Of a stretch of 31,562 bases of DNA, positions 7,501-30,178 are shown piece by piece. Positions within the stretch are counted from its first letter, which is position 1, and the number at the start of each line of letters is the position of its first letter. Origin of the DNA: a virus (Duplodnaviria; Heunggongvirae; Uroviricota; Caudoviricetes); the IMG/VR virus record IMGVR_UViG_2645727555_000016, positions 1 through 31,562 of that record; one strand, 5' to 3'. The notes beneath the pieces were generated by a model. It saw only the letters and a program-made list of their open reading frames with translations. It made no database searches and had not been told where the DNA came from. The position numbers and the translations under genes were made by a program.

Positions 7501-7533
7501 TGGTGGAAAAAAAATTTTATATCGGTAAAAATA

Positions 7534-7553: not shown

Positions 7554-7593
7554 CGGGCAAGGATAGCCCGCCAAATCAAGGAGCATATTCAAC

Positions 7594-12824: not shown

Positions 12825-12834
12825 TGAGTAAACG

Positions 12835-13065: not shown

Positions 13066-13088
13066 TAGGTAAGTACACACCTACAACA
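13064..13088 (+). promoter_or_regulatory. Conserved intergenic motif GATAGGTAAGTACACACCTACAACA (instance 2 of the GATAAGTAAGTAC family)
   Basis: Matches instances 1, 3 and 4 over the 13-nt core and the downstream C-rich/CTAC segment. Confidence 0.45.
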
Positions 13089-13146
13089 AAAGGGTGAAAT
13101 GTGATATAAATCCGCCATCCCGATTTGACTTTTCATGGAGGAAAAC

Positions 13147-13470: not shown

Positions 13471-13483
13471 CAGGAGATCAAGG

Positions 13484-14176
13484 ATGAAGACTCCGAGAGG
13501 CATTCGTAATAATAACCCCGGTAATCTTGATAAAGGATCACCGTGGCAAGGTCTGGTTGCGAATCCAGACGAACCGCGCTTTTGCACGTTTAAAGACCCT
13601 GTTTGGGGGATTCGTGCGCTGGCGGTGACTCTAATTACCTACCACGACAAACGTCGCGCAAAAGACGGCTCAAGTATCGATACCATTCGTGAAGTTATTG
13701 AACGTTGGGCACCGCCGAATGAAAACAACACTGACGCCTACATTAATGAGGTGTCTAAAGCCGTTGGTGTAACCGCAGACATGATCATCGATCTGCATGA
13801 TTACGACATCCTTCGACCTTTGGTTAAGGCAATCATTCGCCATGAGAATGGGCGAGGTCCGCTAAAAACGCTGAACACCTGGTATGCGGCAGAAGTTATT
13901 GAGGAAGGTCTGCGTCGAGCTGGCGTCGTTAAGCCGGTGAAAACCGTGAAGGCTGTTCCTGTAACTAAAGAAACCGCAGGCGCAACTGTTACAGCAGGTA
14001 TTGGTCTGGCACAGCTGGCCGATGTTATGCCACAGGTTTCCGCTGCTATGGATAAAGCACAAGGTCATATCTCTAGCGGGGATACAGTACGCATCATCTT
14101 CGGTATTGCCACTATTGTTGTGGCAGGATTCATTGCCTGGTCGCAGGTAAGAAAACACCAGAAAGGGATGGTCTAA
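13484..14176 (+). CDS. Hypothetical protein with a C-terminal transmembrane anchor; endolysin candidate by position only
   Basis: ORF 13457..14176; likely start ATG 13484 after AGGAG; motif IRNNNPGNL; C-terminal TM IIFGIATIVVAGFIAW; no canonical lysozyme or amidase motif recognised by eye. Confidence 0.3.
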   Translation: MKTPRGIRNNNPGNLDKGSPWQGLVANPDEPRFCTFKDPVWGIRALAVTLITYHDKRRAKDGSSIDTIREVIERWAPPNENNTDAYINEVSKAVGVTADMIIDLHDYDILRPLVKAIIRHENGRGPLKTLNTWYAAEVIEEGLRRAGVVKPVKTVKAVPVTKETAGATVTAGIGLAQLADVMPQVSAAMDKAQGHISSGDTVRIIFGIATIVVAGFIAWSQVRKHQKGMV

Positions 14177-14177
14177 T

Positions 14178-14429
14178 ATGCTAGGCAGCCTGATGACAAA
14201 GCTAAAAGTTGCTTTGATTACGCTGGCTGCCGTTCTTTTCGTTCTGGTCGGCGCTTACACGATGGGCGGGAATGCGGCGCGACGAGCAATGGAAGAGAAG
14301 GCAAAACAGGAAGACAGAAAACGACTTCAAAGCACAGTGGATGTCAAAAATGAAACGGTTAATGAAGTGCGGCAAAAAGATGCCTCTGGTGTTCATCGCG
14401 AGCTGTTTGATAAATGGGTGCGTGATTAA
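14178..14429 (+). CDS. Rz-like inner-membrane spanin (i-spanin) candidate
   Basis: 83 aa; N-terminal TM (LKVALITLAAVLFVLVGAY) followed by a charged helical region; overlaps an out-of-frame lipoprotein ORF. Confidence 0.45.
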   Translation: MLGSLMTKLKVALITLAAVLFVLVGAYTMGGNAARRAMEEKAKQEDRKRLQSTVDVKNETVNEVRQKDASGVHRELFDKWVRD

Positions 14430-14586
14430 GACGCAGGCTCCAGGCGTGCTATTCTGCGATGCTGCAAATCCTATCTATGTGAGTAGAGAGGATTTTATGA
14501 CTGAGGAAACGGAGCGACAGTTGCTTATCCACAATACGATAGGTGAAAGGCTGTGTGAGTGGGGGGCACCTGAACTGAGTCGATGA
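14350..14586 (+). CDS. Rz1-like outer-membrane lipoprotein spanin (o-spanin) candidate, starting inside the Rz-like gene in another frame
   Basis: Internal start of ORF 14272..14586: MKRLMKCGKKMPLVFIASCLINGC with lipobox LINGC; overlapping genes are the classic Rz/Rz1 arrangement; exact start (14341/14350/14362/14380) uncertain. Confidence 0.4.
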   Translation: MKRLMKCGKKMPLVFIASCLINGCVIKTQAPGVLFCDAANPIYVSREDFMTEETERQLLIHNTIGERLCEWGAPELSR

Positions 14587-14795
14587 TTGATCTCAGTTTA
14601 CCTTTTATCCTAAAGATGGCATCTTCACTCATATACACGCCTGTTCACTCAAGCTCATGTTGAATCATTTAGTAATTTGATGTAGATTTATTAGGCATCC
14701 ACGTAAGTGGGCACATACAGGCTACGCATTCTCGTAGCCTTCAACCCCGAGAGGGGTGCCGCAATGACACTTGTGTTAACGGCTAAGGTGGATAT

Positions 14796-15215
14796 ATGCT
14801 AAATTATCATGACAATACGCGTTCTATGCAGACGATCCGCACCAATACTGCGGTTATCGACAGCTTTCCTATGCGTATTCACAACAGTGAAGACGCAGTA
14901 GAAGTGCGACGTATGTTGTGCCGTGAATCAGCTAACCGCCAGCACTTCATCGTCACTTTTAAGAGCGATGTGGCGCGTGCCGAAAAGGTCTCTAATTCTA
15001 CGTCACTGGTTAAACCGTTGGCCGAGGTTGTCGCTAACGGTAAACGAACCTCTTTTGTTTTAGATGTTGCTGAACAATATCCTGACTTGAAGTGTTTAGA
15101 TCGTGATATTTCTTCACGAATCAAACAAGTTGTAGAGTCTTTTATGAAGAAATTCTGTAAAATCGATGATATGGAACCATCAACGGCACAGAATACTTCA
15201 TGGCACCATCTCTAA
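14796..15215 (+). CDS. Hypothetical protein
   Basis: 139-aa ORF after a structured intergenic region; overlaps the start of the next ORF. Confidence 0.35.
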   Translation: MLNYHDNTRSMQTIRTNTAVIDSFPMRIHNSEDAVEVRRMLCRESANRQHFIVTFKSDVARAEKVSNSTSLVKPLAEVVANGKRTSFVLDVAEQYPDLKCLDRDISSRIKQVVESFMKKFCKIDDMEPSTAQNTSWHHL

Positions 15216-15973
15216 TTGGTCAGGCGAACAGATTAATCCCTGAAATAGAAGACTACAGCAAGGTCTTGTCTGAAATGCCGAGAGCGACGAGAATTATCGC
15301 TCTCGGTGAGTTCTATTTTATCTCCCGAGGTTTCGATCTAATTCGATTTACCGAATACGAGCTTGTTGATTCGGCCTATGAACGCTGTATTGTTGGCGAG
15401 TGTCTTGAGTCATGTGATCCTGATTACCAAGAGCAGGAAGTTAAGCGACTCAAACGTGCTGGTTACACACCTCTTGAGATAGGAGCAGAAATTGAATCCT
15501 ACAAGTTGCATGTGGGGCAGCCAGTCCAAACAGTCTTCCGCGTGGCCTACTGCGAGTTTCCAATCAAGGATAAATCTGGAGTAAAAGTCAGCGCCAAGCA
15601 GATTAGAGGGGTTTTTACTCATGCTGATTATATGGGATTAGGCATCGCAAGTTTTGCTTACCTTTATCTCGTAGATAAGTATCAGTACTTGGTTTGCGAT
15701 ACGTTACAGACGATAAAAGGCGCAACTCTTTGGGCTGTGAGTATGCGCAAACATGGACTGGTCGAAATTTACGATACGAAGAACGAAAATTTTATAGAGG
15801 AATTGGGTGAGGATGCCTGTGGCGTAAGTGGTTTTATTCCGTGGGATATCGGTAAGTCTGACGGAGGCCAGATGCGAAGACGTGAAGAGTGGGGGACTAA
15901 TAAAATCAATCTCACCCCAGGTGCTTGTACTCATATAGTGAACATTCTGAGTAAACGATCTATGAATCAATAA
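15200..15973 (+). CDS. Hypothetical protein (weak GNAT-like G-x-G-x-A motif; start uncertain)
   Basis: 257-aa ORF followed by a strong intrinsic terminator; segment HADYMGLGIASFAYLYLV loosely resembles an acetyl-CoA binding motif; not confirmed. Confidence 0.35.
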   Translation: MAPSLIGQANRLIPEIEDYSKVLSEMPRATRIIALGEFYFISRGFDLIRFTEYELVDSAYERCIVGECLESCDPDYQEQEVKRLKRAGYTPLEIGAEIESYKLHVGQPVQTVFRVAYCEFPIKDKSGVKVSAKQIRGVFTHADYMGLGIASFAYLYLVDKYQYLVCDTLQTIKGATLWAVSMRKHGLVEIYDTKNENFIEELGEDACGVSGFIPWDIGKSDGGQMRRREEWGTNKINLTPGACTHIVNILSKRSMNQ

Positions 15974-15995
15974 ACCCGCTACGGCGGGTTTTTTG
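15974..15995 (+). terminator. Rho-independent terminator (CCCGC-TACG-GCGGG followed by TTTTTTG)
   Basis: Perfect GC-rich 5-bp stem, 4-nt loop and 6-T tract directly after the stop codon of ORF 15200..15973. Confidence 0.7.
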
Positions 15996-16121
15996 TTATT
16001 AAGCCCACCTATGTACCTATCATTAAACCTTTACACCGCAGCCGTAGGCATTTAGGCTATATCACATATAAGAAAACAAGTTGTTTCAGACGATAATTAT
16101 ATACGCAAAGGGAACTCTCCA

Positions 16122-16790
16122 ATGACCAAGATCTTTGTGGTTGGCGGCACAAAGGGCGGGCCTGGCAAATCCACCGTTGCCCAGCAAATTGCCGTTTGCC
16201 TGAAAGTCAAAAAGAAGAAGAAGGTTTATATCACTGATATAGATATTCAGCGCACGACAACAAGCTGGTGTGAAGACCGTCGACAGAACGAAGACCTTGA
16301 GCTGATTCCTTTTGCATACGTTCAGGATGACATCATTAAGCACCTAAAATCGCTTCAGGGTAGAGCTGAGTTTGTAGTGGTAGATGCTGGTGGCTTTGAC
16401 TCCGAAATTCAGCGACAAGCGATGCTGATGGCCGACGTTATCATTATCCCGCTTCGTCCTAAGCGTCGTGATTTGAAATCTCTGCGTGACATTGATCCTA
16501 TTATCGACAATGTTCGTAATGTAAACGATAAAGTGAAGGTCCGCGCGGTCATGAACCAGTGCCCGGCTTTGCCATCACAAGTGTCTCGCATTCTGGCGGC
16601 TAAAGAGATTGTTGAGACGTTTGGCATCGAGTCTGCGCCAGTCAATCTATATAACCGCAACGTCTATGATGATGCGGAAGAGTCTGGTCGTTCTATCTTT
16701 GAAATGACCGGTAGCGAGCGCGACAAAAAGGCGGAAGCCGAGTTTGAAGAATTTGTAGATTATCTGTTGAGTCTGGAGGAAGAAGAATAA
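16122..16790 (+). CDS. parA: ParA-family partition ATPase (small type Ib, ParF-like)
   Basis: Deviant Walker A box GGTKGGPGKST (KGGxxK[ST]) at the N-terminus; 222 aa; followed by a small DNA-binding-type gene. Confidence 0.7.
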   Translation: MTKIFVVGGTKGGPGKSTVAQQIAVCLKVKKKKKVYITDIDIQRTTTSWCEDRRQNEDLELIPFAYVQDDIIKHLKSLQGRAEFVVVDAGGFDSEIQRQAMLMADVIIIPLRPKRRDLKSLRDIDPIIDNVRNVNDKVKVRAVMNQCPALPSQVSRILAAKEIVETFGIESAPVNLYNRNVYDDAEESGRSIFEMTGSERDKKAEAEFEEFVDYLLSLEEEE

Positions 16791-17149
16791 TGTCCATGAA
16801 AATGGGTGACCTAGCAAAGCGCAAAGAGCCTGATGCACCGGCTAAGAACACAACTCCTTTGCGCCAACCAGTCAGACCACAGGGACGCCCGACTCGTGGC
16901 AAAGAGAAAATTAAAAGCCGCACAATGTCACTGGAAGACGAATACTTCGAACTGCTGGAGATGATGAAGTTCATCCCTCGCTTCGAGAAATTCACCCGTT
17001 CTGACGTGATTCGCGCAGCCATTTTCCATCTGGCAGAGAAGTCACCGCAGGAAATCGAGGACATCGTGAAACTTAACGAGGCAATCACAGCTGCCGATGT
17101 CACGATGCGTACCGATGAAATTAAACGAGAGTTGATGAAGAAAGGTTGA
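16790..17149 (+). CDS. ParG/ParB-like centromere-binding protein candidate (partner of ParA)
   Basis: 119 aa; start overlaps the parA stop (ATGA); basic Pro/Arg-rich N-terminal tail and helical C-terminus, as in RHH-type small partition proteins. Confidence 0.45.
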   Translation: MSMKMGDLAKRKEPDAPAKNTTPLRQPVRPQGRPTRGKEKIKSRTMSLEDEYFELLEMMKFIPRFEKFTRSDVIRAAIFHLAEKSPQEIEDIVKLNEAITAADVTMRTDEIKRELMKKG

Positions 17150-17193
17150 TAAGAGAAGGCGTGATTAGACGCCTTCTCTTAAAAGGTATATTT

Positions 17194-17949
17194 ATGCTTT
17201 ACAAATATGTTGGAAGTAGCGTCCCGGAAGACACAATAAAGTATTTAAAGTATTACTTAGAAGATGGGAAAATTCGAGCAACTCGTCCGAATGATTTCAA
17301 CGATCCTGCCGAGTTTAAAGTTAATTTTGATTATGATGCTGATATAGACGCCATTAAGAAAAGATTTTTTGAGCTTTGGCCTAATCATCACAATGATGAA
17401 TTTGAACGCTGGTTATTGAGTCAAACAGAACATAGTCGCAGTTTTGATAACTATATGATTAGAACAACTTTTCTGCAGTGTCGGGGAGTTATTTGTTTGA
17501 CAAAAAGACCAGATAATTATCTTATGTGGTCGCATTATGCGCATTCTCACTCTGGTTTTTGCATCGGATTTGATGATGGTTTTATAAATGCGTTTGATGA
17601 TGTTTTTTTTGTTCGCGGTGAGGTCAAATATTCCTCTGATGTTCCGGTTGTAAATTTTTTTACCGACTCAGCTAAAGAGATTGCAGCGGCTCTTTGCCTA
17701 AATAAAAGCGATGTCTGGGAATATGAAGAGGAGGTTAGAATCGTAACCGAGAATTGTGGCGTGAAATTATTTGATAAATCCTTAATTAAGGAAATAACAA
17801 TAGGTTGTAAGGCTAGCAGTCAACTTCAAAATTATGTTCATCAACTATTTGATTCAGGTATCGAAATCTACAAAATGAAGTGCCCTCCAGGATCGTATAA
17901 GCTGGAAAAAATAAGATTAGAGAAAGATACTGATTTTCTTGGATACTAG
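17194..17949 (+). CDS. DUF2971-family protein (domain recurrent in defence islands), AT-rich
   Basis: N-terminal LYKYVGSS and NDFNDPAEF, central LMWSHYAHSHSGFCIGFD; these match the DUF2971 signatures as recalled (LYKY start, FNDP.E, MWSHYA); low-GC coding sequence relative to neighbours. Confidence 0.5.
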   Translation: MLYKYVGSSVPEDTIKYLKYYLEDGKIRATRPNDFNDPAEFKVNFDYDADIDAIKKRFFELWPNHHNDEFERWLLSQTEHSRSFDNYMIRTTFLQCRGVICLTKRPDNYLMWSHYAHSHSGFCIGFDDGFINAFDDVFFVRGEVKYSSDVPVVNFFTDSAKEIAAALCLNKSDVWEYEEEVRIVTENCGVKLFDKSLIKEITIGCKASSQLQNYVHQLFDSGIEIYKMKCPPGSYKLEKIRLEKDTDFLGY

Positions 17950-17971
17950 TATTGGTAGTATCAACAATTAT

Positions 17972-18034
17972 GACCTGCTTCCGTATATAATAAGTATCTT
18001 AGTATATATATATATACGGAAGCAGGTCTTTTAA
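17972..18034. terminator. Long perfect 18-bp inverted repeat (GACCTGCTTCCGTATATA / TATATACGGAAGCAGGTC) with an AT-rich alternating TA loop, followed by TTTT; bidirectional terminator or recombination/origin-like hairpin
   Basis: Arms 17972..17989 and 18011..18028 are exact reverse complements; loop contains a (TA)n run; T-tract follows. Confidence 0.55.
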
Positions 18035-18109
18035 AAGACACCACCAGAACAACTCCCTTCCGTTTCCACTTCCAAAAACTGCCACCAGTCGCTATCATCC
18101 GCTCATTGT

Positions 18110-18132
18110 GATAAGTAAGTAACTACCTACCA
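18110..18132 (+). promoter_or_regulatory. Conserved intergenic motif GATAAGTAAGTAACTACCTACCA (instance 3), immediately upstream of the 18143 start
   Basis: 13-nt core identical to instance 1 except the last base; followed by a CTACC segment as in instances 2 and 4. Confidence 0.45.
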
Positions 18133-18142
18133 GGTGAGCCAC

Positions 18143-18883
18143 ATGAGCCAAATCTTTTTCGATACCATCGACAACGACCAGTACGACTTCATGACAGAGT
18201 GGAATACCGCTGTTATGGACAAGTGGGTCGCTGAAAACATTGGTTTGTCGCGCTGTAAAGACGAGGCTGAACTCTTCGAGACGAAGTGGTTTGATTACCG
18301 TGACATGCATCCTCTCATGGCCACCTGTCTTTTTACGGAGGCATACAAACGTCAGTACTCAAATATCATGCTGACGCACGGTCGCGAACACTTTGAAACA
18401 GCTCCGTTCACCACCGGGTTAAAACGCCTGCCTTATCAGGAGTTGTCGACTGCCAATAAAACGTCGCTATGGAAAGCACGCCAGTTTGCGGATCGCTATT
18501 GCTGCTCATACGACTACTTTATCTCCACCGTTCTTTCCGCAGCTGCACGACGGCTGTGGGACAAGCTGCCGCGCCCACAGCATTTGTGGCAGCCAGAACT
18601 GATTGAGATATTTGAAGAGAAATTAGCCAGACGCGCAACAACCCGTCTGGATGACTCTCTTGTTAGCTTTAAGCATATGGGAGACATGCAGTTCAACCCG
18701 ATTCAGGAAAGCTATTTTGAGTGGATTCTGGAGCGTTTGCGCACCATCCCTCGCAGCAAGCGCATACGCGCAATTTTCTCCGCTATCTGGCTAATGGAAA
18801 TCGTTCCAGAGCGCCTTATTTCCGCCCACTTTCCAGAAGAACTGGAAGAAGCACGGCGGTTTATTGATCCCCTATCTAATTAA
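18143..18883 (+). CDS. Hypothetical protein at the head of the replication module (possible helicase loader or initiator; unsupported)
   Basis: ORF 18134..18883 (GTG) with a likely ATG start at 18143; no recognisable motif; precedes the DnaB-like helicase. Confidence 0.4.
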   Translation: MSQIFFDTIDNDQYDFMTEWNTAVMDKWVAENIGLSRCKDEAELFETKWFDYRDMHPLMATCLFTEAYKRQYSNIMLTHGREHFETAPFTTGLKRLPYQELSTANKTSLWKARQFADRYCCSYDYFISTVLSAAARRLWDKLPRPQHLWQPELIEIFEEKLARRATTRLDDSLVSFKHMGDMQFNPIQESYFEWILERLRTIPRSKRIRAIFSAIWLMEIVPERLISAHFPEELEEARRFIDPLSN

Positions 18884-18926
18884 CTAATACTAGAAAACAA
18901 TTTGTTTAAAAAACAAAGGAAAGCAC

Positions 18927-20267
18927 ATGACCGAACTTTGCCATACAGGACGCGGGCTGTCCGAAGAGTTTGATGAAGATTTCCAGAACAGACTGACGGC
19001 ATATTTTTGTCGTGATCACGAGTTTCTTACTCGTGCGGGAGATCTGGTTGTGCCTAGCCAATTTGCCAATGCGGCCAATGCCATATTGGTTAATATGGTT
19101 TCGGGCTATTACCGTATGTACAAGAGCGCGCCCTCTTCATCTGCAATTCTGGATATGCTTAAGCGTGCGAAACGCGATAAGACTATCCGTGAGGAACTAT
19201 TCGCCGATGTTGTTGCTGCGTTTAAGCGCATTCTTGCAGAAAAATTGTCCGATACCTCGTACATGGTTGACCAGGTATCAACCTTCGCAAAAAGTGTAGC
19301 GTTTGATGATGCTCTGATTAAGGCTGCTGAACTGAAAGAGAAGGGCGACTTTCAGGGGGCGATGGCAATCATGGCCAAGGTTCAGCAGATTGGATCGAAC
19401 GAAGCGACCGGAATCTATGACTACTACACCTCCGCAAGTGAGCGATTGAAAGCGCGTGAATATGAGGCTTCAGAGGAGTATGTGCCAAACAGCATTACAA
19501 CTGGACTCCCTCTGCTTGATAGATTGCTGTACCAAAAAGGCTGGGCAAAGCGCGAAATGGTGCTCTTCATGGGGTTCGCTAAATCCGGTAAATCGACCGC
19601 AATGGGTGAGTTTTCCATAAACGCAACGCTTGCTGGCTACAATGTTCTGTATCTCTCGCTGGAGGTTCACACCACCATTTTATCCGACCGTTTTGATGCA
19701 AGATTGTCGGAGACAGAAATGTCCAAGCTGGTGGAACGGCGCGATGAGGTTCATCGTAAGTTGGCAGAGTTGGGAGCCACGAAGGGGATTGGTAGTTTGT
19801 GGGTGGTTGAGCGTCCGTCAGGAAGTATGTCACCGGCAGATCTGGACCGTATGCTTAACAGCATGAAAGCCAACGGCATGGTACCTGACATGGTTGTTGT
19901 CGACTACGCAGATTTGATGCGTGCCAGTTATGACCTTCGTGATGATCGCGCCAACATTCGTAGCATCTACACCGATTTACGTGCTCTTTATGACAAGCAT
20001 AATGTTGCTGGGATCACGGCATCGCAGACAAACCGTGAAGGTGGCGCGTCAGAAGTTGCCACAATGATGCACGCTGCCGACAACATCGAAAAAGTACGTA
20101 TTGCTGACCTGGTAATAACGATCAACAAAACCGAAGAAGAAGAAGCGAAAGGAGAGGCTCGTCTCTACTTTGCTGGTTCACGTAACCAGCAGGGAGGGAT
20201 CAGCATTCGCGTTAAACAAAACCTCGAACAAATGCGCTTCATTGAGCGAATCTTAGACGTTACCTAA
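18927..20267 (+). CDS. DnaB-like replicative DNA helicase (RecA-fold C-terminal ATPase)
   Basis: Walker A GFAKSGKST, Walker B-like MVVVDYADLM; 446 aa; N-terminal helical domain plus C-terminal ATPase. Confidence 0.6.
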   Translation: MTELCHTGRGLSEEFDEDFQNRLTAYFCRDHEFLTRAGDLVVPSQFANAANAILVNMVSGYYRMYKSAPSSSAILDMLKRAKRDKTIREELFADVVAAFKRILAEKLSDTSYMVDQVSTFAKSVAFDDALIKAAELKEKGDFQGAMAIMAKVQQIGSNEATGIYDYYTSASERLKAREYEASEEYVPNSITTGLPLLDRLLYQKGWAKREMVLFMGFAKSGKSTAMGEFSINATLAGYNVLYLSLEVHTTILSDRFDARLSETEMSKLVERRDEVHRKLAELGATKGIGSLWVVERPSGSMSPADLDRMLNSMKANGMVPDMVVVDYADLMRASYDLRDDRANIRSIYTDLRALYDKHNVAGITASQTNREGGASEVATMMHAADNIEKVRIADLVITINKTEEEEAKGEARLYFAGSRNQQGGISIRVKQNLEQMRFIERILDVT

Positions 20268-20414
20268 AAAATAAGCGTGGAGAACACCTCCACGCTTGAT
20301 TCATTGGTGAAACAACTTTTCTTTTGCCAAACCACAAAAGAAAAACACATGAGCCTTTATGTTATATCAACATTTAGGTTGGTCACAATATTGCCTATTA
20401 AAGGTGGAATTATC

Positions 20415-21530
20415 GTGAGCGAGCTGAAAGAGCTAATTACCGAATTAGATTTTGAACAATGGTTGGACACTGAAGGTATCGTTTATCGACGTGGAGGCGT
20501 GAGTGCTCGCGGTCGTGAAGTGAATATCAAGGAGTGTCCGGTATGTGGCAGCTCCAACTGGAAGGTATATTTCAATCTGACCAGTGGCGTCGGCAAATGC
20601 TTTGCTGGTGATCATCCCGAAGAGATTCAGTTCAATAAGCTGGTCTTCCTCAAGCACTACAGCGGTAAATCACGACGACAGTTCGAGGAATATGTGCAGA
20701 ACGCGCTGATCTCACAAGGATGGGCGCCGAAGAAGGAAGAGGTCGTGCTGGCCAGCAAGGTTGAACTCGAAGGGCCAGTAGCTCTCCCTCGACATTACGA
20801 ACTCCCCATTGACGGTCGTCTTCCTGATTATCTGGTGGAGCGCCATATCTCCCCGGATCTGGCCAAATACTTTGATCTGCGTTACTGCGTCGAAGGCAAG
20901 CACGCATACGTCGATCCGTACACAGACCAGGTCAAAGGGCAGGTGTTTGATATGCGCATCCTGATACCGGTTTACGATCTGGATGGCGTGATGAAGACCT
21001 TCCAGGGGCGTGACATTACCGGTGCAGCAGAACGCCGTTATCTCTTCCCTATGCAGCTGCCGGCGTCGGGTAAGTTTCTCTACAACGGCCACAACGCAGT
21101 CGGGAAACAAACAGTCGTTGTGTGTGAAGGGGCATTTGACGTAATGGGCGTGAAGCGAGCCATCTTCGACGAAAAGACGCTGAGGGATTATGTAGAGCCA
21201 ATTGGCACGTTCGGGATGCACTTGTCCGGAAATATGAATGAGGACGCTGAAGATCAGTTGGGCGCGTTCCTGACGCTCAAGGCGCGTGGATTACGCAACG
21301 TCATCATGATGTGGGATAGCGAGAAGCAAGCGATCCGCAACACCATGTCGGCGGCCAAACGCCTCACCAGCATCGGACTAAATGTCAAAGTGGCCTGTCT
21401 GGGCGAAGAAGGTCTCGACCCCGGCGACGCGACGCCAGAGCAGATCCTTAAAGCCTATTATCGTGCCAAGCCTTACTCCAAACAGCTGGAGTTAAAATGC
21501 AAAGTGCTCGGTATCAAGTCACTCGTGTAG
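20415..21530 (+). CDS. DNA primase (zinc-ribbon plus TOPRIM)
   Basis: ORF 20277..21530; probable GTG start at 20415 after AAGGTGG; zinc-binding CPVCGSSNW...KCFAGDH; TOPRIM-like VVVCEGAFDVMG and MWDSE. Confidence 0.5.
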   Translation: MSELKELITELDFEQWLDTEGIVYRRGGVSARGREVNIKECPVCGSSNWKVYFNLTSGVGKCFAGDHPEEIQFNKLVFLKHYSGKSRRQFEEYVQNALISQGWAPKKEEVVLASKVELEGPVALPRHYELPIDGRLPDYLVERHISPDLAKYFDLRYCVEGKHAYVDPYTDQVKGQVFDMRILIPVYDLDGVMKTFQGRDITGAAERRYLFPMQLPASGKFLYNGHNAVGKQTVVVCEGAFDVMGVKRAIFDEKTLRDYVEPIGTFGMHLSGNMNEDAEDQLGAFLTLKARGLRNVIMMWDSEKQAIRNTMSAAKRLTSIGLNVKVACLGEEGLDPGDATPEQILKAYYRAKPYSKQLELKCKVLGIKSLV

Positions 21531-21531
21531 T

Positions 21532-22584
21532 TTAAGTTGTGGGAGACAGACGGTTCAGGACAAACGCAGCGATATTATTTAGTGCTATATTTAGCAAACT
21601 TGCATCATATGTTTGGTCGTTATCCTTAGGTTTAAAATTGCTGATACTGACTGTCTCACTGTGCTCATTTTCATAGAAACGTTTACTGCTTGAATCTAGG
21701 CGTTTGAGGACGTAAATTTGCCCAAATTCAATCCACTCACCTTCACCATTGAGTCCGCTCCCTGTTTTGACTGAGATGAAGTACTTTGCCAGCTTGGTTG
21801 TAATGCAGTCTTCATTTTTTTCTATGCAAACCTTAATGCCGGCGGCTTTCAAACTACGATAAATGCTGTTTGGATATGCCCCACTATAGATTTCGCTGCT
21901 TTCAATGATAATGACGTCGTATTCTTCCTTTGGCTCAATAGATAAAGCTTCAGGCTCCAAATCATCCTTGTGAAAAATAAATCCTAAAAGACGCTCAAGT
22001 TCATCTGTTAATTTGAACATGGGGTTCGCTTGGATCTCGCCAGCCCTGTCTTCGTAGACGAGACCCGAGGTTATGAGCTTATTTAGCGATCTCAGAGCCA
22101 TTCCACTTTTTTGTGATGTGAGGCTAACTTGGGCTAATACAGTTGATTTATAGCCTTTTATTGGCGAGCTTGTTGTGATGTAAAGTTTGCGCGCATATTC
22201 AATATCAAAGCAGGTTAACCCACTCAGTATGTGGATAAAAAATAGTTTTTCATCGTCGTTAAGGCTGCTGCGGGCTAGGCTTACCGTCAAGCGAATGTAG
22301 TATTCTGTTTTCTTGTCTTCATCATCAAGCACGAGCTTTTTGACTAACGCCGAAAAGTGTTCTCTTGAGATATCGACCTCATCGTCGCAAATTTCACCAA
22401 TGCCCATAATGTAACGGTTGAATCGATCACGACAAGTCGTCGCATTTATCTCTGAGAACAACGTGAACATTTTTTCCGCTGCCTCAATATGAGGTCCAAC
22501 AAGCGGTATAGATTTGGCAAACGCCAAACCAGTTTCTTTCAATACCTTCCTGTGTTGCATCACGTTTTTGGACAACGTTGTCAT
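21532..22584 (-). CDS. Hypothetical protein on the opposite strand, AT-rich; candidate moron (possible abortive-infection or defence cargo)
   Basis: 350-aa ORF, one of only two convincing minus-strand genes in the window; visibly lower GC than flanks; sits between the primase and a promoter-like AT-rich spacer. Confidence 0.5.
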   Translation of the reverse strand: MTTLSKNVMQHRKVLKETGLAFAKSIPLVGPHIEAAEKMFTLFSEINATTCRDRFNRYIMGIGEICDDEVDISREHFSALVKKLVLDDEDKKTEYYIRLTVSLARSSLNDDEKLFFIHILSGLTCFDIEYARKLYITTSSPIKGYKSTVLAQVSLTSQKSGMALRSLNKLITSGLVYEDRAGEIQANPMFKLTDELERLLGFIFHKDDLEPEALSIEPKEEYDVIIIESSEIYSGAYPNSIYRSLKAAGIKVCIEKNEDCITTKLAKYFISVKTGSGLNGEGEWIEFGQIYVLKRLDSSSKRFYENEHSETVSISNFKPKDNDQTYDASLLNIALNNIAAFVLNRLSPTT

Positions 22585-22703
22585 AGACCTAAGCCTTGTG
22601 TGTTTAACGTATTAGTTAAGTGAAATCATATAGAAGTGACCTGACAGCTACAACTGGACAAGATTAAGAGCATTTTTTATAAACGAAACTAAACGCCTAC
22701 ATT

Positions 22704-22724
22704 GATAAGTAGATACATACTTAT
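22704..22724 (+). promoter_or_regulatory. Palindromic GATAAGTA...TACTTAT site (ATAAGTA-N7-TACTTAT) in the divergent intergenic region between the minus-strand ORF and gene 22768
   Basis: Inverted repeat of the ATAAGTA half-site read directly; overlaps a TTGATA -35-like hexamer. Confidence 0.35.
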
Positions 22725-22767
22725 ATTTCTGTAAGAATATGCTCGACAAAGGAATTGAGGAACCTTT

Positions 22768-23562
22768 ATGAAAGCAGATATTCAGAAGTCCGTTACCGAA
22801 ATCATCGACAAATCAGGCGTAGAAATTGATACAGAAGAGCGCCAGAAGATTATCGATGAGGCGATCCAGACTGCGCTGGAGCACATCGCCACGTCTGTGA
22901 GCACCGCACCTCTTTCGGAAGGCTCGAAATACATGCGGGTCTGGGTTCGTTTTGGGGAGTCCCCGGAGCTGCCTGGTGTTAAACAGAAACGCGCGGCACT
23001 CGTGGCGTTCACTCGCAAAATGAAGGACGCAACGGTCGAAGTACGCGCCGGTGCATGGTACGACGGTCGCGTTGTCTACACCAATCAGGCAGTGTGCGAT
23101 GAAGGTGAACGGTTTGAGGAAATTGTCGACGCGACTCTTCGCGCGATCAAAGGCAGGGCTGGCGTAGAGGATGATCCTTCTATCGCGGCGTTCCTGAGCA
23201 TTGTCGAACTGCCTGAAGTTACCGAACGCGTTACAGATCTGACAACCCCACCTGGTTTGCTGGAGTTGGTGGTCAGTGGCGATACCAAAAAAGCCGTTGA
23301 GCGCATTCGTGAGGTGGAATACGGCATCATCTGCGATATGTGCCGCAGCGACTTAGACCTGGTGCGCATCATTGTCGACGCGGGTCAGACATGTGACGGT
23401 GTGCTCGCCAGTTTTGCAGGGCAGGTGGCACGCCTGGCCAACGAGCTGCCGATGATTAAACAGGAGGCAAAATCCTACGCCGTCCACCATGCCAACGATT
23501 TACTGGAACCATACCGGTTCGAAGCCGCTCAGGACAAAATGACTGGCTGGGCTACCTGGTAA
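22768..23562 (+). CDS. Hypothetical protein
   Basis: 264-aa ORF with AGGAA-type RBS; followed by an intrinsic terminator. Confidence 0.45.
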   Translation: MKADIQKSVTEIIDKSGVEIDTEERQKIIDEAIQTALEHIATSVSTAPLSEGSKYMRVWVRFGESPELPGVKQKRAALVAFTRKMKDATVEVRAGAWYDGRVVYTNQAVCDEGERFEEIVDATLRAIKGRAGVEDDPSIAAFLSIVELPEVTERVTDLTTPPGLLELVVSGDTKKAVERIREVEYGIICDMCRSDLDLVRIIVDAGQTCDGVLASFAGQVARLANELPMIKQEAKSYAVHHANDLLEPYRFEAAQDKMTGWATW

Positions 23563-23579
23563 GCCTTGATAAACCATTT

Positions 23580-23601
23580 AGCCCCCTGGTGGGGCTTTTT
23601 T
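23580..23601 (+). terminator. Rho-independent terminator (AGCCCC-CTGGT-GGGGCT followed by TTTTT)
   Basis: GC stem and T-tract directly after the stop of ORF 22768..23562. Confidence 0.65.
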
Positions 23602-23612
23602 AAACTGCGCTC

Positions 23613-23635
23613 AATAAGTAAGTACACGACTACGG
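23613..23635 (+). promoter_or_regulatory. Conserved intergenic motif AATAAGTAAGTACACGACTACGG (instance 4), immediately upstream of the 23644 start
   Basis: Core AATAAGTAAGTAC plus ACnnCTAC segment, as in instances 2 and 3. Confidence 0.45.
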
Positions 23636-23643
23636 TTAGAAGC

Positions 23644-24108
23644 ATGTCCACAAAAACAGATTTGTCGAAAATCCCGTCTATCTCCGGAAACAACGGTTAT
23701 TCGCTGCGCTGTCAGGAAGTGAAGATCAACGGCCATGAGGCCCATTGCAGCTATACAGTCTGCCAGCACACCATCCTCGCCTACAAAGAGAAGCGTCTCC
23801 CAGCGACATCGTTCCAGTCCTGCGCTGCGGCCATTGCTGCTGGAAAATGCCAGGCGCTGAAGATGATGGTCGAAGAGATCCGCAAAGGCGAACAGCTCTA
23901 CTTCATCGATATGGCTGCGCTTATCAAAGAAGTGGAAGAGCAAAACGACCACGCCAGAACGCTTACCCGGAAGCGCAACACCATGACGATTCAACGCACG
24001 AAGAAAACAGAACCAGCCAAACCCGAAACCACGTCCACCGATTCACTGGCGCCTGTCACTGACGTGTACGCGGCACTCATTGAAGAAGCAACCAAAGAAA
24101 ACACATGA
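23644..24108 (+). CDS. Hypothetical protein (Cys-containing; possible nucleic-acid-binding)
   Basis: ORF 23566..24108 overlaps the terminator; the likely start is ATG 23644 (MSTKTDL). Confidence 0.4.
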   Translation: MSTKTDLSKIPSISGNNGYSLRCQEVKINGHEAHCSYTVCQHTILAYKEKRLPATSFQSCAAAIAAGKCQALKMMVEEIRKGEQLYFIDMAALIKEVEEQNDHARTLTRKRNTMTIQRTKKTEPAKPETTSTDSLAPVTDVYAALIEEATKENT

Positions 24109-24142
24109 AAACTCCCGAGCGACCGATGGAGGTTAAACACTA

Positions 24143-25465
24143 ATGGAAAAACTGATCGCCCTAAAGCACAAGCTGGATGCCATAAAAACGATGGGAACCA
24201 ACGCCAAAAAAGAGGCGCTGGCCAACCTTGATGAATTTGAGCAGAGCATGGTCTCGCTAATGCTCAACCCATTCATTCGATTCGGTGTGAAGAAGTACAA
24301 AGTGGTCGAGCCACTCGATACTTCCGTACCCATCGACCAGAAGGTAGTCGAGCTGCTGGAGAAGCTGGCGGCGCGCGAACTGACCGGGAACGCGGCCATT
24401 ACTGCTGTCGAATCACTCGTTGCCTCAATGTGCGCTGACGGGCAGGACGTGTTTCGTCGCTTCCTGCTGAAAGATCCGAAAGCCGGCGTCGGCATCAGCC
24501 TGTGCAACAAGGTGTTCGAAAACCCAATTCCGAAGTTTGAGGTACAGCTGGCGTCTCCGTACAAGGAGAAAGGCGACAAATACCCATTTAAACCAAATCC
24601 AAAGGCCAAGTGGCCAATGATCGGCAGCCTCAAACTCGATGGTCTCCGGGTTATCTGCGAAGTCATCGTTGACGAGGAAGAGGTGAACTTCCTGACGCGT
24701 ACCGGAAATCCGATTACGTCACTCGATCACCTTAAACCGGCCATGCTGGAGCGAGGCAGACTCTCCGGGTTCAAGCACATCTTCTTCGATGGTGAGGGTA
24801 CTGCAGGTACGTTCAACCAGTCCGTATCGGCGCTTCGCAAGAAGAACGTGAAAGCCATTGGTGCCGTTTACCACATCTTCGATTTCTTCTTACCGGAATG
24901 GCGTGCTCAGGCAAAAAGCAAAGAGTACCTGAAGACCGGCATGAAGCTGAAAGAGCGCCTGGCTATGCTGGTGGCGTTGTTCCGCAACACTTGCGGGGAA
25001 GATTACGCGCAAGATATCCACCTGCATCCGTTCTACATCATCCATAGCCATGGAGACTTTATCGAACGCTTCATGAAGCGCCTGGACGAGAACGAAGAGG
25101 GGGAGATGGGCAAAGATCCGGATTCTGTTTACGAGTTTAAACGTACCCGCAGCTGGTGGAAGTTAAAAGACGAAGATTCAGAAGATGGTGAAATTATCGA
25201 CTTTGAGCCGGGCGACCCGGACTCTGGTTTTGCCAACACGCTTGGAAAAATTGTTATTCGTCTTGAAAACGGCGTCATCGTGCGTGCGAGCGGCATTAAG
25301 CATAAATATCTGGACGAGATCTGGAACAACAAAGAGAAGTACCGTGGTCGTATTGTTGAGGTTCATTGTCACGAGAAAACACCGGACGGCAGCTTACGCC
25401 ACCCACGACTGAAATGGCCGCGTTGCTTACGCGATACAGAAGATCGAATCGGAGATAAAGAATGA
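24143..25465 (+). CDS. ATP-dependent DNA ligase
   Basis: Adenylation motif I KxDGxR present as SLKLDGLRV; 440 aa; location in the replication module. Confidence 0.6.
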   Translation: MEKLIALKHKLDAIKTMGTNAKKEALANLDEFEQSMVSLMLNPFIRFGVKKYKVVEPLDTSVPIDQKVVELLEKLAARELTGNAAITAVESLVASMCADGQDVFRRFLLKDPKAGVGISLCNKVFENPIPKFEVQLASPYKEKGDKYPFKPNPKAKWPMIGSLKLDGLRVICEVIVDEEEVNFLTRTGNPITSLDHLKPAMLERGRLSGFKHIFFDGEGTAGTFNQSVSALRKKNVKAIGAVYHIFDFFLPEWRAQAKSKEYLKTGMKLKERLAMLVALFRNTCGEDYAQDIHLHPFYIIHSHGDFIERFMKRLDENEEGEMGKDPDSVYEFKRTRSWWKLKDEDSEDGEIIDFEPGDPDSGFANTLGKIVIRLENGVIVRASGIKHKYLDEIWNNKEKYRGRIVEVHCHEKTPDGSLRHPRLKWPRCLRDTEDRIGDKE

Positions 25466-25641
25466 TGCTCGGCTGGATGATTGCATTTTTAGCGGTTGGT
25501 TTTTTAATCGGTATTGTGGTGATGTCCAGTTGCATCAATGACTACATTAAAAGCGGTGTTATAGAACGACGCGGTCGTATTTATCGCATTGTAGAAATAA
25601 CCCACACAGTGAAGGAGATTAAGGATGATCGTATTAAGTAA
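25462..25641 (+). CDS. Small membrane protein (59 aa), not in the supplied ORF track; paralogue of 25837..25989
   Basis: ATGA overlap with the ligase stop; N-terminal TM MMLGWMIAFLAVGFLIGIVVM followed by GRIYRIVE, parallel to GKRVYRVV in the paralogue. Confidence 0.4.
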   Translation: MMLGWMIAFLAVGFLIGIVVMSSCINDYIKSGVIERRGRIYRIVEITHTVKEIKDDRIK

Positions 25642-25840
25642 ACGGGAGAAGGAAACGCTTCATGAAATCAGTAAGTGGCCGGAGTTCCCTGAGTACTGGA
25701 AGCCTAAAACGCGAGCTAAGTTAGAGCGTTTAGGGTTGGTTGCAAACGTTTCTGAAACGAAGTGTTCGGCCAACTACCAGTTAACTGATAAAGGGAAAGT
25801 ATTGCTACAGCAATTAGTAGAATCAGGAGCGTTAAAATGA
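25625..25840 (+). CDS. Hypothetical small protein
   Basis: 71-aa ORF; overlapping start and stop with neighbours (translational coupling). Confidence 0.4.
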   Translation: MIVLSKREKETLHEISKWPEFPEYWKPKTRAKLERLGLVANVSETKCSANYQLTDKGKVLLQQLVESGALK

Positions 25841-25989
25841 TTCCATACATCTCATTAGCTTTTATGGGTGGCTTCCTTATTGGCTTCGGCATCTGTCGTG
25901 ATTTAATTAAGCAGGAACTTAAAACCAAAACACTGTGCATCGGAAAGCGTGTGTATCGGGTAGTTCATGAAACAAAGGTTAGAAAATGA
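25837..25989 (+). CDS. Small membrane protein (50 aa), not in the supplied ORF track; paralogue of 25462..25641
   Basis: ATGA overlap with the upstream stop; TM MIPYISLAFMGGFLIGFGI followed by a basic tail. Confidence 0.4.
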   Translation: MIPYISLAFMGGFLIGFGICRDLIKQELKTKTLCIGKRVYRVVHETKVRK

Positions 25990-26276
25990 GCAATTTAACT
26001 TCTTGGGACTGGTGGTTGGCCACCTATTTCTTAGCGGCCGGAGTCGCATTCGCCTTTTACGTAGGTCAGTTAGTCGTAAAACTGTTGCTGATTAAATTTG
26101 CTAGTCATAAACGTATCGATGATGGTCTGTGGCGTCTTGGCACCCTGGTGGAAACTCGCTACGGGCAACTTAAGGAGAACGAAACCATTACTATCCAAGC
26201 GAAACGATTCACTGCCACCATCACAAGAACACCTAGTCGTAGAGTGGCATTGATCAAAAAAGTCACAACCGAATAA
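25986..26276 (+). CDS. Small membrane protein
   Basis: 96 aa; N-terminal TM WWLATYFLAAGVAFAFYVGQLVV; ATGA overlap with the upstream gene. Confidence 0.4.
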   Translation: MSNLTSWDWWLATYFLAAGVAFAFYVGQLVVKLLLIKFASHKRIDDGLWRLGTLVETRYGQLKENETITIQAKRFTATITRTPSRRVALIKKVTTE

Positions 26277-26285
26277 AAATACAAT

Positions 26286-26307
26286 GATAAGTATTTACTT
26301 ACTTATC
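26286..26307. promoter_or_regulatory. Perfect palindrome GATAAGTA-TT-TACTTACTTATC built from the same GATAAGTAAGTA unit as the recurring motif; operator-like
   Basis: The right arm is the reverse complement of GATAAGTAAGTA; lies at the start of a gene-free structured region upstream of the tRNA cluster. Confidence 0.45.
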
Positions 26308-27052: not shown

Positions 27053-27127
27053 GATGGTGTAGCTCAGCGGTAGAGCAGTTGGCTGTTAACCAACTGGTCG
27101 GTGGTTCGAATCCACCCACCATCGCCA
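27053..27127 (+). tRNA. tRNA-Asn (anticodon GTT)
   Basis: Manual fold: acceptor GATGGTG/CACCATC, D-stem GCTC/GAGC, anticodon stem GTTGG/CCAAC with loop CTGTTAA, T-arm GGTGG-TTCGAAT-CCACC, discriminator G, encoded CCA. Confidence 0.75.
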
Positions 27128-27132
27128 ATTTA

Positions 27133-27219
27133 GGGGAGTTAGTCCGTAGAGGTAGCGGTGTAGACTGTAAATCTACTGTCATGGCGACTCGGGTGGTTCG
27201 ACTCCATCACTCCCCACCA
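27133..27219 (+). tRNA. tRNA-Tyr (anticodon GTA), class II with long variable arm
   Basis: Acceptor GGGGAGT/ACTCCCC, anticodon stem GTAGA/TCTAC with loop CTGTAAA, variable arm with GTC/GAC stem, T-arm GGTGG-TTCGACT-CCATC, encoded CCA; D-arm is non-canonical. Confidence 0.55.
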
Positions 27220-27223
27220 AATT

Positions 27224-27299
27224 GCCGGTTTAGCTCAGTTGGTAGAGCAGTCGCTTTGTAAGCGAATGGCCAGCGGTTCAAGTCCGTTAACCGGCACCA
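27224..27299 (+). tRNA. tRNA-Thr (anticodon TGT)
   Basis: Acceptor GCCGGTT/AACCGGC, D-stem GCTC/GAGC, anticodon stem GTCGC/GCGAA (one mismatch) with loop TTTGTAA, T-arm AGCGG-TTCAAGT-CCGTT, encoded CCA. Confidence 0.7.
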
Positions 27300-27304
27300 A
27301 CATA

Positions 27305-27395
27305 ATATTGAGAACATTGGCGTAACGGGGTCATATCCCAATCTATGAATAAATGTTGCGTTGCCGCGTGACAACCAGTGTTCTCAACATTGTGG
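27305..27395. repeat. Hairpin element B: imperfect inverted repeat (ATATTGAGAACATTGG / CCAGTGTTCTCAACATT) between tRNA-Thr and tRNA-Ser
   Basis: Two mismatches in a 16-17-bp repeat; shares the CTCAAC..TTGTG arm signature with elements A and C. Confidence 0.5.
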
Positions 27396-27494
27396 TGAAT
27401 GCACAGGCTGATGTGCCGCAACTACAGTAGTGCGCGCTTTGCGGGGCTTGCTACAACCCTGTGTCGGAGATCAGCACCGACCACCACAATCACT

Positions 27495-27581
27495 GGAGAG
27501 TAGGGAGCATGGTGCTCAAGCGGTCTTGAAAACCGTCCCATTGCGCAAGCGATGATGGTTCGATTCCATTACTCTCCGCCA
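27495..27581 (+). tRNA. tRNA-Ser (anticodon TGA), class II with long variable arm
   Basis: Acceptor GGAGAGT/ACTCTCC, anticodon stem GCGGT/ACCGT with loop CTTGAAA, long variable arm, T-arm GATGG-TTCGATT-CCATT, discriminator G, encoded CCA; D-arm slightly irregular. Confidence 0.55.
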
Positions 27582-28982: not shown

Positions 28983-29797
28983 TATTGGATGGCAAAATTG
29001 TTATGGGCCGCCGCGTTTTCTCTCTGATGAAGCAGTTCCTTAGCTGGTGCGCCTTCCAGGGGATGATAGACGTGTCACCGTTAAACGATATGTCACTAAA
29101 CAAAGTTGCCGGTGGCGCAAAGCCCACACCTCGCGAGCGGAAGCTGACCGACGCAGAGGTATGGGTGTTCTGGAATATATGGGACTACTTCAATGTGTGC
29201 GCTGGTACAAAATGGGCGGCCAGGCTGTGTCTTGTATCAGCAAGACGACCTGACGAAGTACTGCGGGCTAAAAAAAGTGAGTTCAATCTTAAGCGTGGGG
29301 TTTGGAATCAAGGCAAAAGAAACAAGTCAGCACGTGAGCATTCGCTGCCTTTAAGCACATTAATGCGCACATGCATTGAAGAGTTGTTCGAATACGGTAA
29401 AGACAGCCAGTGGCTCGTGCCTTCGAATAAAAAAATCGGGAAAGACCTTCCTATGTCTAAAGTGGCAATATCCCAGGCATTACGTCGTATTCTGGAACGA
29501 CCAGAACTGATGGAGCTTGAGCCATTTACACCCCGAGATTTGCGCCGTACTGCGCGTAGTTACTTCCCAGCATTAGGCATAAGCCAGGAGGTATCACGCA
29601 AAATTATGAACCACAGTCTTGAGGGGATAGATCGGGTCTACGACCGGCACGATTATATGGACGAGATGCGAGACGCCTTAGAAAGTTTCTCGACGTACAT
29701 CGCATCAATCGTAGAGCAACCGGATTTAGACGAAATTGACCACAAATTCAAGGGAGATCGTCTATCAACAGAGCTTATTCGTGTAAATTTTTCATAG
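28955..29797 (+). pseudogene. P4-type tyrosine recombinase/integrase, N-terminally truncated (catalytic domain only); probable remnant
   Basis: C-terminal signature PFTPRDLRRTARSY...IMNHSLEGIDRVYDRHDY resembles P4-family integrase boxes (R...HxLRRT...H...Y), but Arg replaces the usual His in HDLRR and the roughly 100-150-aa N-terminal arm-binding region is absent. Confidence 0.55.
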
Positions 29798-30178
29798 AGA
29801 CTTTATGGCCTCAACAACCTTTTGTGATGCGCCTTTCTCTTTACCGAATCGCTCGTTATATGCAGCAAGAACCTGTTTTTCGTCCTCGTTAAGAGGAGCG
29901 GTGCCTTCTTTGTATAAAAATGCTGCGAGTTCAGGTTGGCGTTCTTCCAGCACCATCATCATTAGACGACTTGGCTCAATACCCAGCGCCAGCGCCAACG
30001 GACGAACCTTATCGATAGGCAAAGGAATTTTGCCACTTTTAATTAAAGAAAGGTTGTTGGCATTTTTATAACCAATAAGTCTGGCTATTTGGGCCTGACT
30101 CATAGGTGAGGATTCAATCAGCCCTGCGATAAAAGCAGCATAGCGACTTTCTATAAATTCAATCTTGTTGTCAGACAT
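29792..30178 (-). CDS. XRE-family helix-turn-helix transcriptional regulator (Cro/CI-like)
   Basis: HTH segment SQAQIARLIGYKNANNLSLIKSG near the N-terminus; 128 aa; divergently oriented to downstream + strand genes, with a palindrome in its upstream region. Confidence 0.6.
   Translation of the reverse strand: MSDNKIEFIESRYAAFIAGLIESSPMSQAQIARLIGYKNANNLSLIKSGKIPLPIDKVRPLALALGIEPSRLMMMVLEERQPELAAFLYKEGTAPLNEDEKQVLAAYNERFGKEKGASQKVVEAIKSL

Follow-up and report, generated by a model that had tools for sequence, protein, structure and literature searches.

A candidate abortive-infection gene in a cargo slot of a pHCM2/SSU5-type phage-plasmid

Experiments on Abi-alpha (EF2833) from prophage 6 of Enterococcus faecalis V583 have shown that infection by the podophage Idefix is aborted and ends in premature lysis, by a mechanism that is unknown (PMC6356687). 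In phiNM1 lysogens, no prophage protein is more abundant than one of the corresponding family, DUF4393. Belisama, a DUF2806 protein from a Vibrio chromosomal integron, is described as an anti-phage defence system and reported to have homology to the Abi-alpha domain (bioRxiv 10.1101/2024.07.02.601686). Here, a gene that may be related to these systems is described from a stretch of 31,562 nucleotides (nt) of a Caudoviricetes virus (IMG/VR record IMGVR_UViG_2645727555_000016, positions 1 to 31,562), which is called the window throughout. The gene, an open reading frame (ORF) for 350 amino acids (aa) on the minus strand at 21532..22584, is referred to as the cargo gene. The window belongs to a phage-plasmid of the pHCM2/SSU5 type because of its identity to phage SSU5, to plasmids of enterotoxigenic Escherichia coli (ETEC) and to a protein of pHCM2. 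The flanks of the cargo gene are 90% identical in DNA to Salmonella phage SSU5, positions 21000-23300 show 99.9% identity to ETEC plasmids of about 100 kb (e.g., NZ_CP025894), and the cargo product is 100% identical to WP_000209842.1 (STY_RS25050) of plasmid pHCM2 from Salmonella Typhi CT18. Copies at 99% identity or more were found in 44 PLSDB records from Salmonella, E. coli and Citrobacter. No defence system was reported by DefenseFinder in pHCM2-like Typhi phage-plasmids (bioRxiv 10.1101/2025.09.12.675607), and no mention of this protein was found in the literature. As a self-contained cassette of one gene (a moron), the cargo gene is optional and occupies a cargo hotspot of the phage-plasmid. 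We give an even chance to its being a single-protein abortive-infection or defence gene expressed in the lysogen, in which an Abi_alpha-like core would be joined to a C-terminal domain that sets specificity and can be swapped.

Abi-alpha and the cargo gene share several traits. Both are single, solitary genes of temperate phages or mobile elements without a recognisable enzymatic domain, and Abi-alpha genes are typically antisense to their neighbours in an early or replication region. Of eight phage Abi_alpha genes, six were lone and ran antisense to the genes on both sides, in several cases next to replication genes, an arrangement like that in the window. The motifs LT/LS-x-x-D-I/A and S-I/L-N-x-L-x-x-x-G-L-L are common to both proteins. 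Unlike Abi-alpha, which has about 270-285 aa and is known from Firmicute prophages, the cargo product has 350 aa, belongs to a family of Enterobacteriaceae phage-plasmids and plasmids, and carries in its C-terminal 135 aa a separate hypervariable alpha/beta domain without counterpart in the aligned Abi_alpha proteins. Belisama is similar by its description as a single-gene cassette with Abi-alpha-domain homology, but it sits in an integron and not in a phage-plasmid hotspot, and no member of the cargo family matched DUF2806 (PF10987) at E <= 0.01. MarR/SlyA regulators are stand-alone dimers of 140-150 aa, whereas the winged helix-turn-helix of the cargo product is embedded in an acidic three-part protein of 350 aa between unrelated flanking domains, and no cognate operator was detected. 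The locus also resembles the defence hotspots of P2/P4, P1 and SSU5-type elements, in which a fixed backbone slot holds alternative cargo with its own promoter, or none; unlike there, the cargo here is no catalogued system according to PADLOC and to DefenseFinder on pHCM2-like elements.

An optional cargo gene between primase and the next operon

The ORF at 21532..22584 starts with ATG and is convergent with the primase gene, the two stop codons being 1 nt apart. A first-pass annotation, made by a model from the sequence alone, had pointed to a lone minus-strand ORF in a replication region otherwise transcribed from the plus strand. This description was confirmed, as every other long ORF from 11962 to 26276 lies on the plus strand. 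A further candidate minus-strand gene (128 aa, ATG start) was seen among plus-strand ORFs at 29792-30178; the cargo gene is not the sole antisense ORF of the window. An intergenic region of 183 nt (22585..22767) parts the cargo gene from the plus-strand gene at 22768. The cargo gene is a real, functional gene, because all 70 tested relatives match one PHROG family and the ratio of nonsynonymous to synonymous divergence (dN/dS) is well below 1. The gene and the segment that distinguishes the window from relatives with an empty site are:

21532..22584, minus strand: cargo coding sequence, 350 aa, equal to WP_000209842.1 / STY_RS25050 of pHCM2; phrog_22938, unknown function
21531..22693, no strand: inserted segment of about 1.16 kb compared to empty-site relatives, from junction alignments

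Using the joined flanks as query against PLSDB, 802 plasmids were matched and the spans between the flanks were sampled. At least four states of the slot were found. It is empty, with about 80 nt, in Enterobacter cloacae, Salmonella, Citrobacter, Klebsiella oxytoca and others; 76 nt separate primase and next gene in phage Cyrano, and 80 nt in E. cloacae OW849102 and others. It holds the cargo gene in a span of 1237 nt, or a minus-strand gene for a 417-aa Sel1-repeat protein (Citrobacter freundii, Enterobacter hormaechei, Enterobacter asburiae), or a plus-strand ORF of 139 aa that could not be annotated (Salmonella). The slot could be mined for more passenger genes. Coordinates of the alternative cargo are:

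C. freundii NZ_CP114568 (locus L009), 1491-2744, minus strand: Sel1-repeat cargo, 417 aa
Salmonella NZ_CP149263 (locus L010), 1557-1976, plus strand: 139-aa ORF cargo, no annotation obtained

Most of the related phage-plasmids lack the gene. A near-full-length homologue was found in at most 82 PLSDB plasmids, compared to 802 with matching flanks, and among 249 complete E. coli genomes with the flanks 10 had this allele. Where phage-plasmids have the gene, it is always at one site and in one orientation, identical in SSU5, K. oxytoca, E. hormaechei, Enterobacter ludwigii, Citrobacter and Salmonella AnCo3. The left edge of the insert is the base after the primase stop codon, the right edge lies just upstream of the backbone CGCC...ATAAGTA element, and no direct repeats flanking the insert were seen in the junction alignments. 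The slot is a cargo hotspot, bounded on one side by the stop codon of the primase gene and on the other by the conserved promoter/operator of the early operon that follows.

The proposal of a horizontally acquired moron was strongly supported by comparative genomics rather than by GC content or the palindrome: empty sites, alternative cargo, old mosaic alleles and relatives on unrelated mobile elements were all found, and the suggested comparison across related phages revealed that most of them do not have the gene. The low GC content held against the immediate flanks (0.414 compared to 0.507 for primase and 0.547 for the downstream gene 22768..23562) but not at the scale of the window, with its GC of 0.466 (z = -1.0; 6th of 34 putative genes). 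Codon usage was unremarkable, as the GC content at third codon positions (GC3) was 0.439, 15th of 34 genes. We therefore rejected GC and codon bias as too weak a sign of foreign origin. The strongest compositional outlier of the window is the DUF2971 gene at 17146..17949 (GC 0.356, GC3 0.299).

Proteins of the flanking genes were found 92-98% identical to the window among relatives, with the exception of one K. oxytoca relative (phrog_5055 protein 65%, ligase 85%). The cargo product shared 59-77% identity, which divides into 73-84% for aa 1-215 and 36-65% for aa 216-350. Using Nei-Gojobori estimates, the synonymous divergence dS of the cargo gene ranged from 0.79 to saturation, compared to 0.10-0.96 for primase and 0.09-0.28 for the downstream gene. 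The dN/dS ratio was 0.14-0.32 overall, 0.07-0.24 in the N-terminal and 0.19-0.40 in the C-terminal part, and the cargo gene is under purifying selection. By these divergences, the cargo alleles are much older than the divergence of the backbone. Sliding-window identity to the window sequence was employed for the location of breakpoints. In E. ludwigii the upstream region and the gene as far as about 22258 are 98-100% identical to the window, and the remainder down to the primase stop codon 42-60%; in the K. oxytoca and Citrobacter alleles an identity of 97-100% drops to 66-73% near 22300. We read these abrupt switches as the result of homologous recombination that exchanged cassettes and domains, the C-terminal domain being passed between alleles as a module. 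The natural allele series (100, 78, 72, 65 and 57% identity) represents a ready-made specificity series for genetics.

Protein family, architecture and relation to Abi_alpha

The family is rare. An exhaustive profile search among 1.84 billion cluster representatives yielded only 90 family representatives at E <= 1e-3, nearly all of 330-390 aa; word-indexed homology searches found almost nothing beyond the close alleles. All 70 aligned members matched phrog_22938. Distant homologues (29-40% identity) are located on IncF/IncR plasmids. On p948 of ETEC H10407 the homologue adjoins a RelE/ParE toxin-antitoxin pair, on Klebsiella plasmids it follows a KfrA_N gene and precedes an AIPR-family gene, and in Enterobacter kobei it is carried by an IncF plasmid. 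The contigs that encode nine representatives comprised an integrative and conjugative element (ICE), Rep3 plasmids, islands with an integrase and with TacAT, CcdAB, Fic and ArdC, and a T7-like podophage, in which the homologue lies between the genes for internal virion proteins and the tail-fibre gene. In all contexts examined the carrier was a plasmid, ICE, genomic island or phage, and the gene was always solitary. Apart from related KfrA proteins, the upstream neighbours of distant homologues included no common partner gene. DUF4145 genes were observed near homologues in three contexts, namely the E. kobei plasmid, an ICE and a Rep3 plasmid. A KfrA_N gene precedes the homologue in one IncR/IncFIA/Rep3 plasmid lineage, with a 4-bp overlap in Klebsiella; in these contexts AIPR-family or DUF4145 genes follow:

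Klebsiella p13190-tetA (locus L004), 5297-9425: KfrA_N context
Locus L016, 3315-7890: KfrA_N context
Locus L021, 2045-4400: KfrA_N context

An AlphaFold2 model built from the 70-sequence alignment reached a pLDDT of 88.5 and a pTM of 0.83. The predicted layout starts with a helical hairpin, continues with a helical core and a winged helix, and ends in an alpha/beta domain. On the minus strand of the window these parts correspond to:

22387..22584, minus strand: aa 1-66, helical hairpin (H2-24, H30-65) with a conserved IP.vG motif (P27, G30), from the AlphaFold2 model
22039..22443, minus strand: aa 48-182, conserved core aligned to Abi_alpha (PF14337/DUF4393), from hhalign and sub-threshold PF14337 matches
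21940..22209, minus strand: aa 126-215 (approximate in the model), predicted MarR/SlyA-like winged helix-turn-helix, overlapping the C-terminal part of the Abi_alpha-like core
21535..21939, minus strand: aa 216-350, predicted hypervariable alpha/beta domain with a class II aminoacyl-tRNA synthetase anticodon-binding-like or flavodoxin-like fold, the part swapped between alleles

The most conserved residues of the family, all located in this core, are K92, Y96, L170, D87, G174, L123 and E89. The test for a winged helix-turn-helix fold was positive, and the family profile matched the MarR/SlyA structure 4mnu with an E-value of 1.5e-4; no solved structure matched the full length. The cargo product is acidic, with an isoelectric point (pI) of 5.8 for the winged helix-turn-helix region, and neither a transmembrane segment nor a signal peptide was found (maximum Kyte-Doolittle hydropathy over 19 residues 1.21). 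Foldseek against the viral structures of BFVD gave nothing at E <= 0.001, and PADLOC gave only scattered single weak matches among the 70 relatives. No replication-related domain or homology was found in the cargo product. A DUF6086 match of the window protein (E 0.1) was treated as noise. Matches of the C-terminal domain to PDB entries of threonyl-tRNA synthetase anticodon-binding domains and of the Hjc resolvase ST1444 had E-values of about 0.5, and the idea of a nuclease or tRNA binder was not used. No catalytic motif had been seen by eye in the first-pass annotation, and no enzymatic domain was recognisable in the searches.

Abortive infection had been one of several functions suggested for the gene, and this class now found specific support in a remote relation of the core to Abi_alpha; the function is inferred. 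Nine of the 70 relatives matched PF14337 below threshold at E <= 0.01, all in the same register, the best of them with 26.4 bits (E 8e-6) compared to a gathering cut-off of 29 bits. Two relatives already carried a precomputed PF14337 label. The phiNM1 protein ABF73047.1, used as positive control, is a bona fide Abi_alpha protein (153.6 bits); phiNM1 ABF73033.1 was rejected as a DUF4393 protein, as it has no Pfam match. Aligning the family (70 sequences) with eight phage Abi_alpha proteins by hhalign gave a probability of 73.1% (E 3.1e-5) over 134 columns, from aa 48-182 of the window protein to 42-192 of Abi_alpha, compared to the usual standard of more than 90%. With a single Abi_alpha sequence the probability was 18.5% (E 1.3e-3). 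Together these matches suggest that the conserved core is remotely homologous to Abi_alpha/DUF4393.

Upstream region and palindrome

The intergenic region between the cargo gene and the gene at 22768 is AT-rich as first described, with a GC content of 0.33, and divides into two parts:

22585..22693, minus strand: cargo-specific upstream region, kept among alleles, absent from empty sites and from other cargo
22694..22767, plus strand: regulatory region of the downstream backbone operon, not of the cargo, with the inverted repeat 22705-22724 followed by the invariant TTTCTGTAAGAATA

Promoter-like hexamers had been noted in the first-pass annotation. By eye, a rather weak candidate promoter of the cargo gene was found, with TTGTAG (22653-22648), a spacing of 17 nt and TATGAT (22630-22625), the -10 element falling in a block that is conserved among the alleles. 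A consensus promoter scan called no sigma-70-like site in 22585..22767, and over the whole region fewer sites were called than expected from shuffled sequence. A Shine-Dalgarno sequence AAGG is located at 22597-22594 upstream of the cargo gene. An Rfam search of 21300-23000 found nothing.

The palindrome GATAAGTA, which had been named together with the cargo gene, is real, with arms of 7 bp (ATAAGTA, 22705-22711; TACTTAT, 22718-22724) and a spacer of 6 nt, but its attribution to the cargo did not hold. In an alignment of nine relatives, among them Cyrano and E. cloacae with an empty site and the variants with Sel1 and 139-aa cargo, ATAAGTAGATACATACTTAT and the following TTTCTGTAAGAATA were invariant in 9/9. 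We therefore rejected the palindrome as operator of the cargo gene, since it is conserved in genomes without this gene. The exact arms recur once more at 26287-26306, in the intergenic region after 25986-26276, and degenerate copies are found at 17990-18009 and 18111-18130 upstream of the gene at 18134. In total, ATAAGTA-N6-TACTTAT has 4 matches in the window compared to 0.07 expected by chance, and at both exact sites a -10-like element, TGTA(T)AAGA(A)T, follows. The motif is a recurrent regulatory element, placed in intergenic regions ahead of plus-strand operons of the phage-plasmid, and not a feature of the cargo; it is probably an operator/promoter through which a backbone regulator acts on early and replication operons.

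Proposed function, rival explanations and further features of the window

In the proposed abortive-infection mechanism, a promoter belonging to the cargo gene itself would drive its transcription against the direction of the replication operon, and the plasmid-prophage could then make the product without depending on lytic transcription. At the C-terminus, the variable alpha/beta domain may confer specificity or act as a sensor for some component of an incoming phage, and the Abi_alpha-like helical/winged-helix core (D87, E89, K92, Y96; L170, G174) would then trigger the abortion of infection. By analogy to Abi-alpha of E. faecalis, the outcome might be a mistimed, premature lysis or death of the infected cell, which would protect the clonal lysogen population. 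Because no enzymatic effector domain is recognisable, killing or arrest would probably occur by protein-protein or protein-nucleic-acid interaction and not by catalysis. That the gene is the founding enterobacterial member of an uncharacterised single-protein anti-phage family, combining an Abi_alpha-derived core with a recombination-swapped alpha/beta sensor, is a tentative extension which we consider somewhat doubtful. If true, the alleles would set which phages are aborted, and the gene would provide a host-benefit function for the long 'cryptic' pHCM2 and its relatives in E. coli, Citrobacter and Klebsiella. pHCM2 has been present in S. Typhi lineages for decades without a known phenotype, and defence-finding tools report nothing on pHCM2-like elements; an abortive-infection gene expressed in the lysogen would be a plausible benefit, help to explain this persistence, and also matter when Typhi and ETEC strains are typed or treated with phages. 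Abi_alpha/DUF4393 proteins abound in prophages. A Gram-negative relative would offer domain-swap alleles at one locus and a tractable E. coli/Salmonella model for the mechanism of Abi-alpha-type immunity.

We are aware of the fact that several observations weigh against a function in abortive infection. The relation to Abi_alpha is below the Pfam gathering threshold, and the hhalign probability of 73% is suggestive, not conclusive. The window protein itself did not match PF14337 at E <= 0.1 and does not formally qualify for this Pfam family; Pfam, PADLOC and NCBIfam gave no usable match for it. The C-terminal part of Abi_alpha does not align with the C-terminal domain of the cargo product. Nowhere in the protein was an effector domain (nuclease, TIR, pore, protease) recognisable. 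Gene-wide dN/dS is below 1, with no direct signature of positive selection. The mechanistic step is by analogy only, as the mechanism of Abi-alpha itself is unknown, and a KfrA-type gene upstream of the homologue in three related plasmid contexts would fit a role in plasmid maintenance.

Such a role was considered as an alternative. The protein could be a winged-helix regulator or accessory of plasmid maintenance that binds DNA or KfrA/ParA and modulates replication, partition or incompatibility, its variable C-terminal domain setting partner or ligand specificity. The position of the gene inside the replication module, the 4-bp overlap with the upstream KfrA_N gene in Klebsiella IncR/IncFIA plasmids, the KfrA-type gene upstream in two more contexts, and ParA and Rep genes nearby in several plasmids are consistent with this. 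We consider it unlikely, however: most SSU5-like phage-plasmids dispense with the gene while their replication genes are identical, and homologues are also found in a T7-like phage and on chromosomal islands that carry no genes for replication or partition. In addition, the KfrA proteins of the three contexts are closely related (55-78% identity) and probably represent one backbone lineage and not independent associations, an acidic winged helix-turn-helix is unusual for an operator-binding domain, and the sole conserved palindrome nearby is the backbone element that is present without the gene. Quite unlikely is a factor in the competition between elements, i.e., superinfection exclusion or incompatibility against related phage-plasmids, or an anti-defence protein against host immunity, the allelic diversity of which would track rival elements or host systems. 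Both classes were among the options of the first-pass annotation, and hotspot cargo with deep, recombining alleles as well as relatives on mobile elements that lie beside anti-restriction (ArdC) and toxin-antitoxin genes would agree with them. Against them, most exclusion proteins have a membrane segment or a signal peptide and this protein has neither, a size of 350 aa and a candidate antisense promoter of its own are unlike typical small early anti-defence genes, and the only relation detected at family level is that to an abortive-infection protein.

That the ORF is a conserved accessory gene of core replication, or a decaying and non-functional reading frame, is highly improbable. Its place between the primase and ligase genes would fit a core gene, but the gene is absent from most relatives and has no homology to replication proteins. 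Decay is countered by reading frames that are intact in all alleles with dN/dS of 0.14-0.32, and by the nearly identical copies in the 44 plasmid records across Salmonella, E. coli and Citrobacter. These presence/absence and selection data already contradict both versions. Conserved synteny in all relatives, homology to a replication accessory protein and a composition like that of the neighbours had been named beforehand as findings that would speak against a moron; synteny was not universal, no such homology was found, and the GC content differed from the neighbours.

The genes around the slot code for a DnaB-like helicase, a DnaG/Toprim primase, two PHROG families of unknown function and an ATP-dependent DNA ligase. 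As called, the primase ORF starts with GTG at 20277 and extends over 417 aa to 21530, while annotated homologues have 371-394 aa; their lengths imply a start near 20415 (VSELKELI...) or slightly upstream. Between the DUF2971 homologue and the next gene, pHCM2 of CT18 has an extra gene of 351 aa and unknown function, STY_RS25070, where the window has a gap of 185 nt only. This suggests a second cargo hotspot beside the DUF2971 gene. STY_RS25070 was rejected as a paralogue of the cargo gene, to which it is unrelated.

Two further observations concern other parts of the window. A tRNA cluster on the plus strand at 27053-27581 comprises Asn(GTT), Tyr(GTA), Thr(TGT) and Ser(TGA); at the corresponding place phage Cyrano has annotated Asn, Thr and Ser tRNAs and no Tyr. 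A 1435-aa ORF at 7594-11901 contains a GC-rich stretch at 8000-9000 (GC 0.60, AT skew +0.32), and long ORFs in other frames overlap it at 7985-8992 (plus strand) and 7988-8968 (minus strand), which suggests a low-complexity or repetitive coding segment, e.g., a collagen-like or Gly-rich tail-fibre region.

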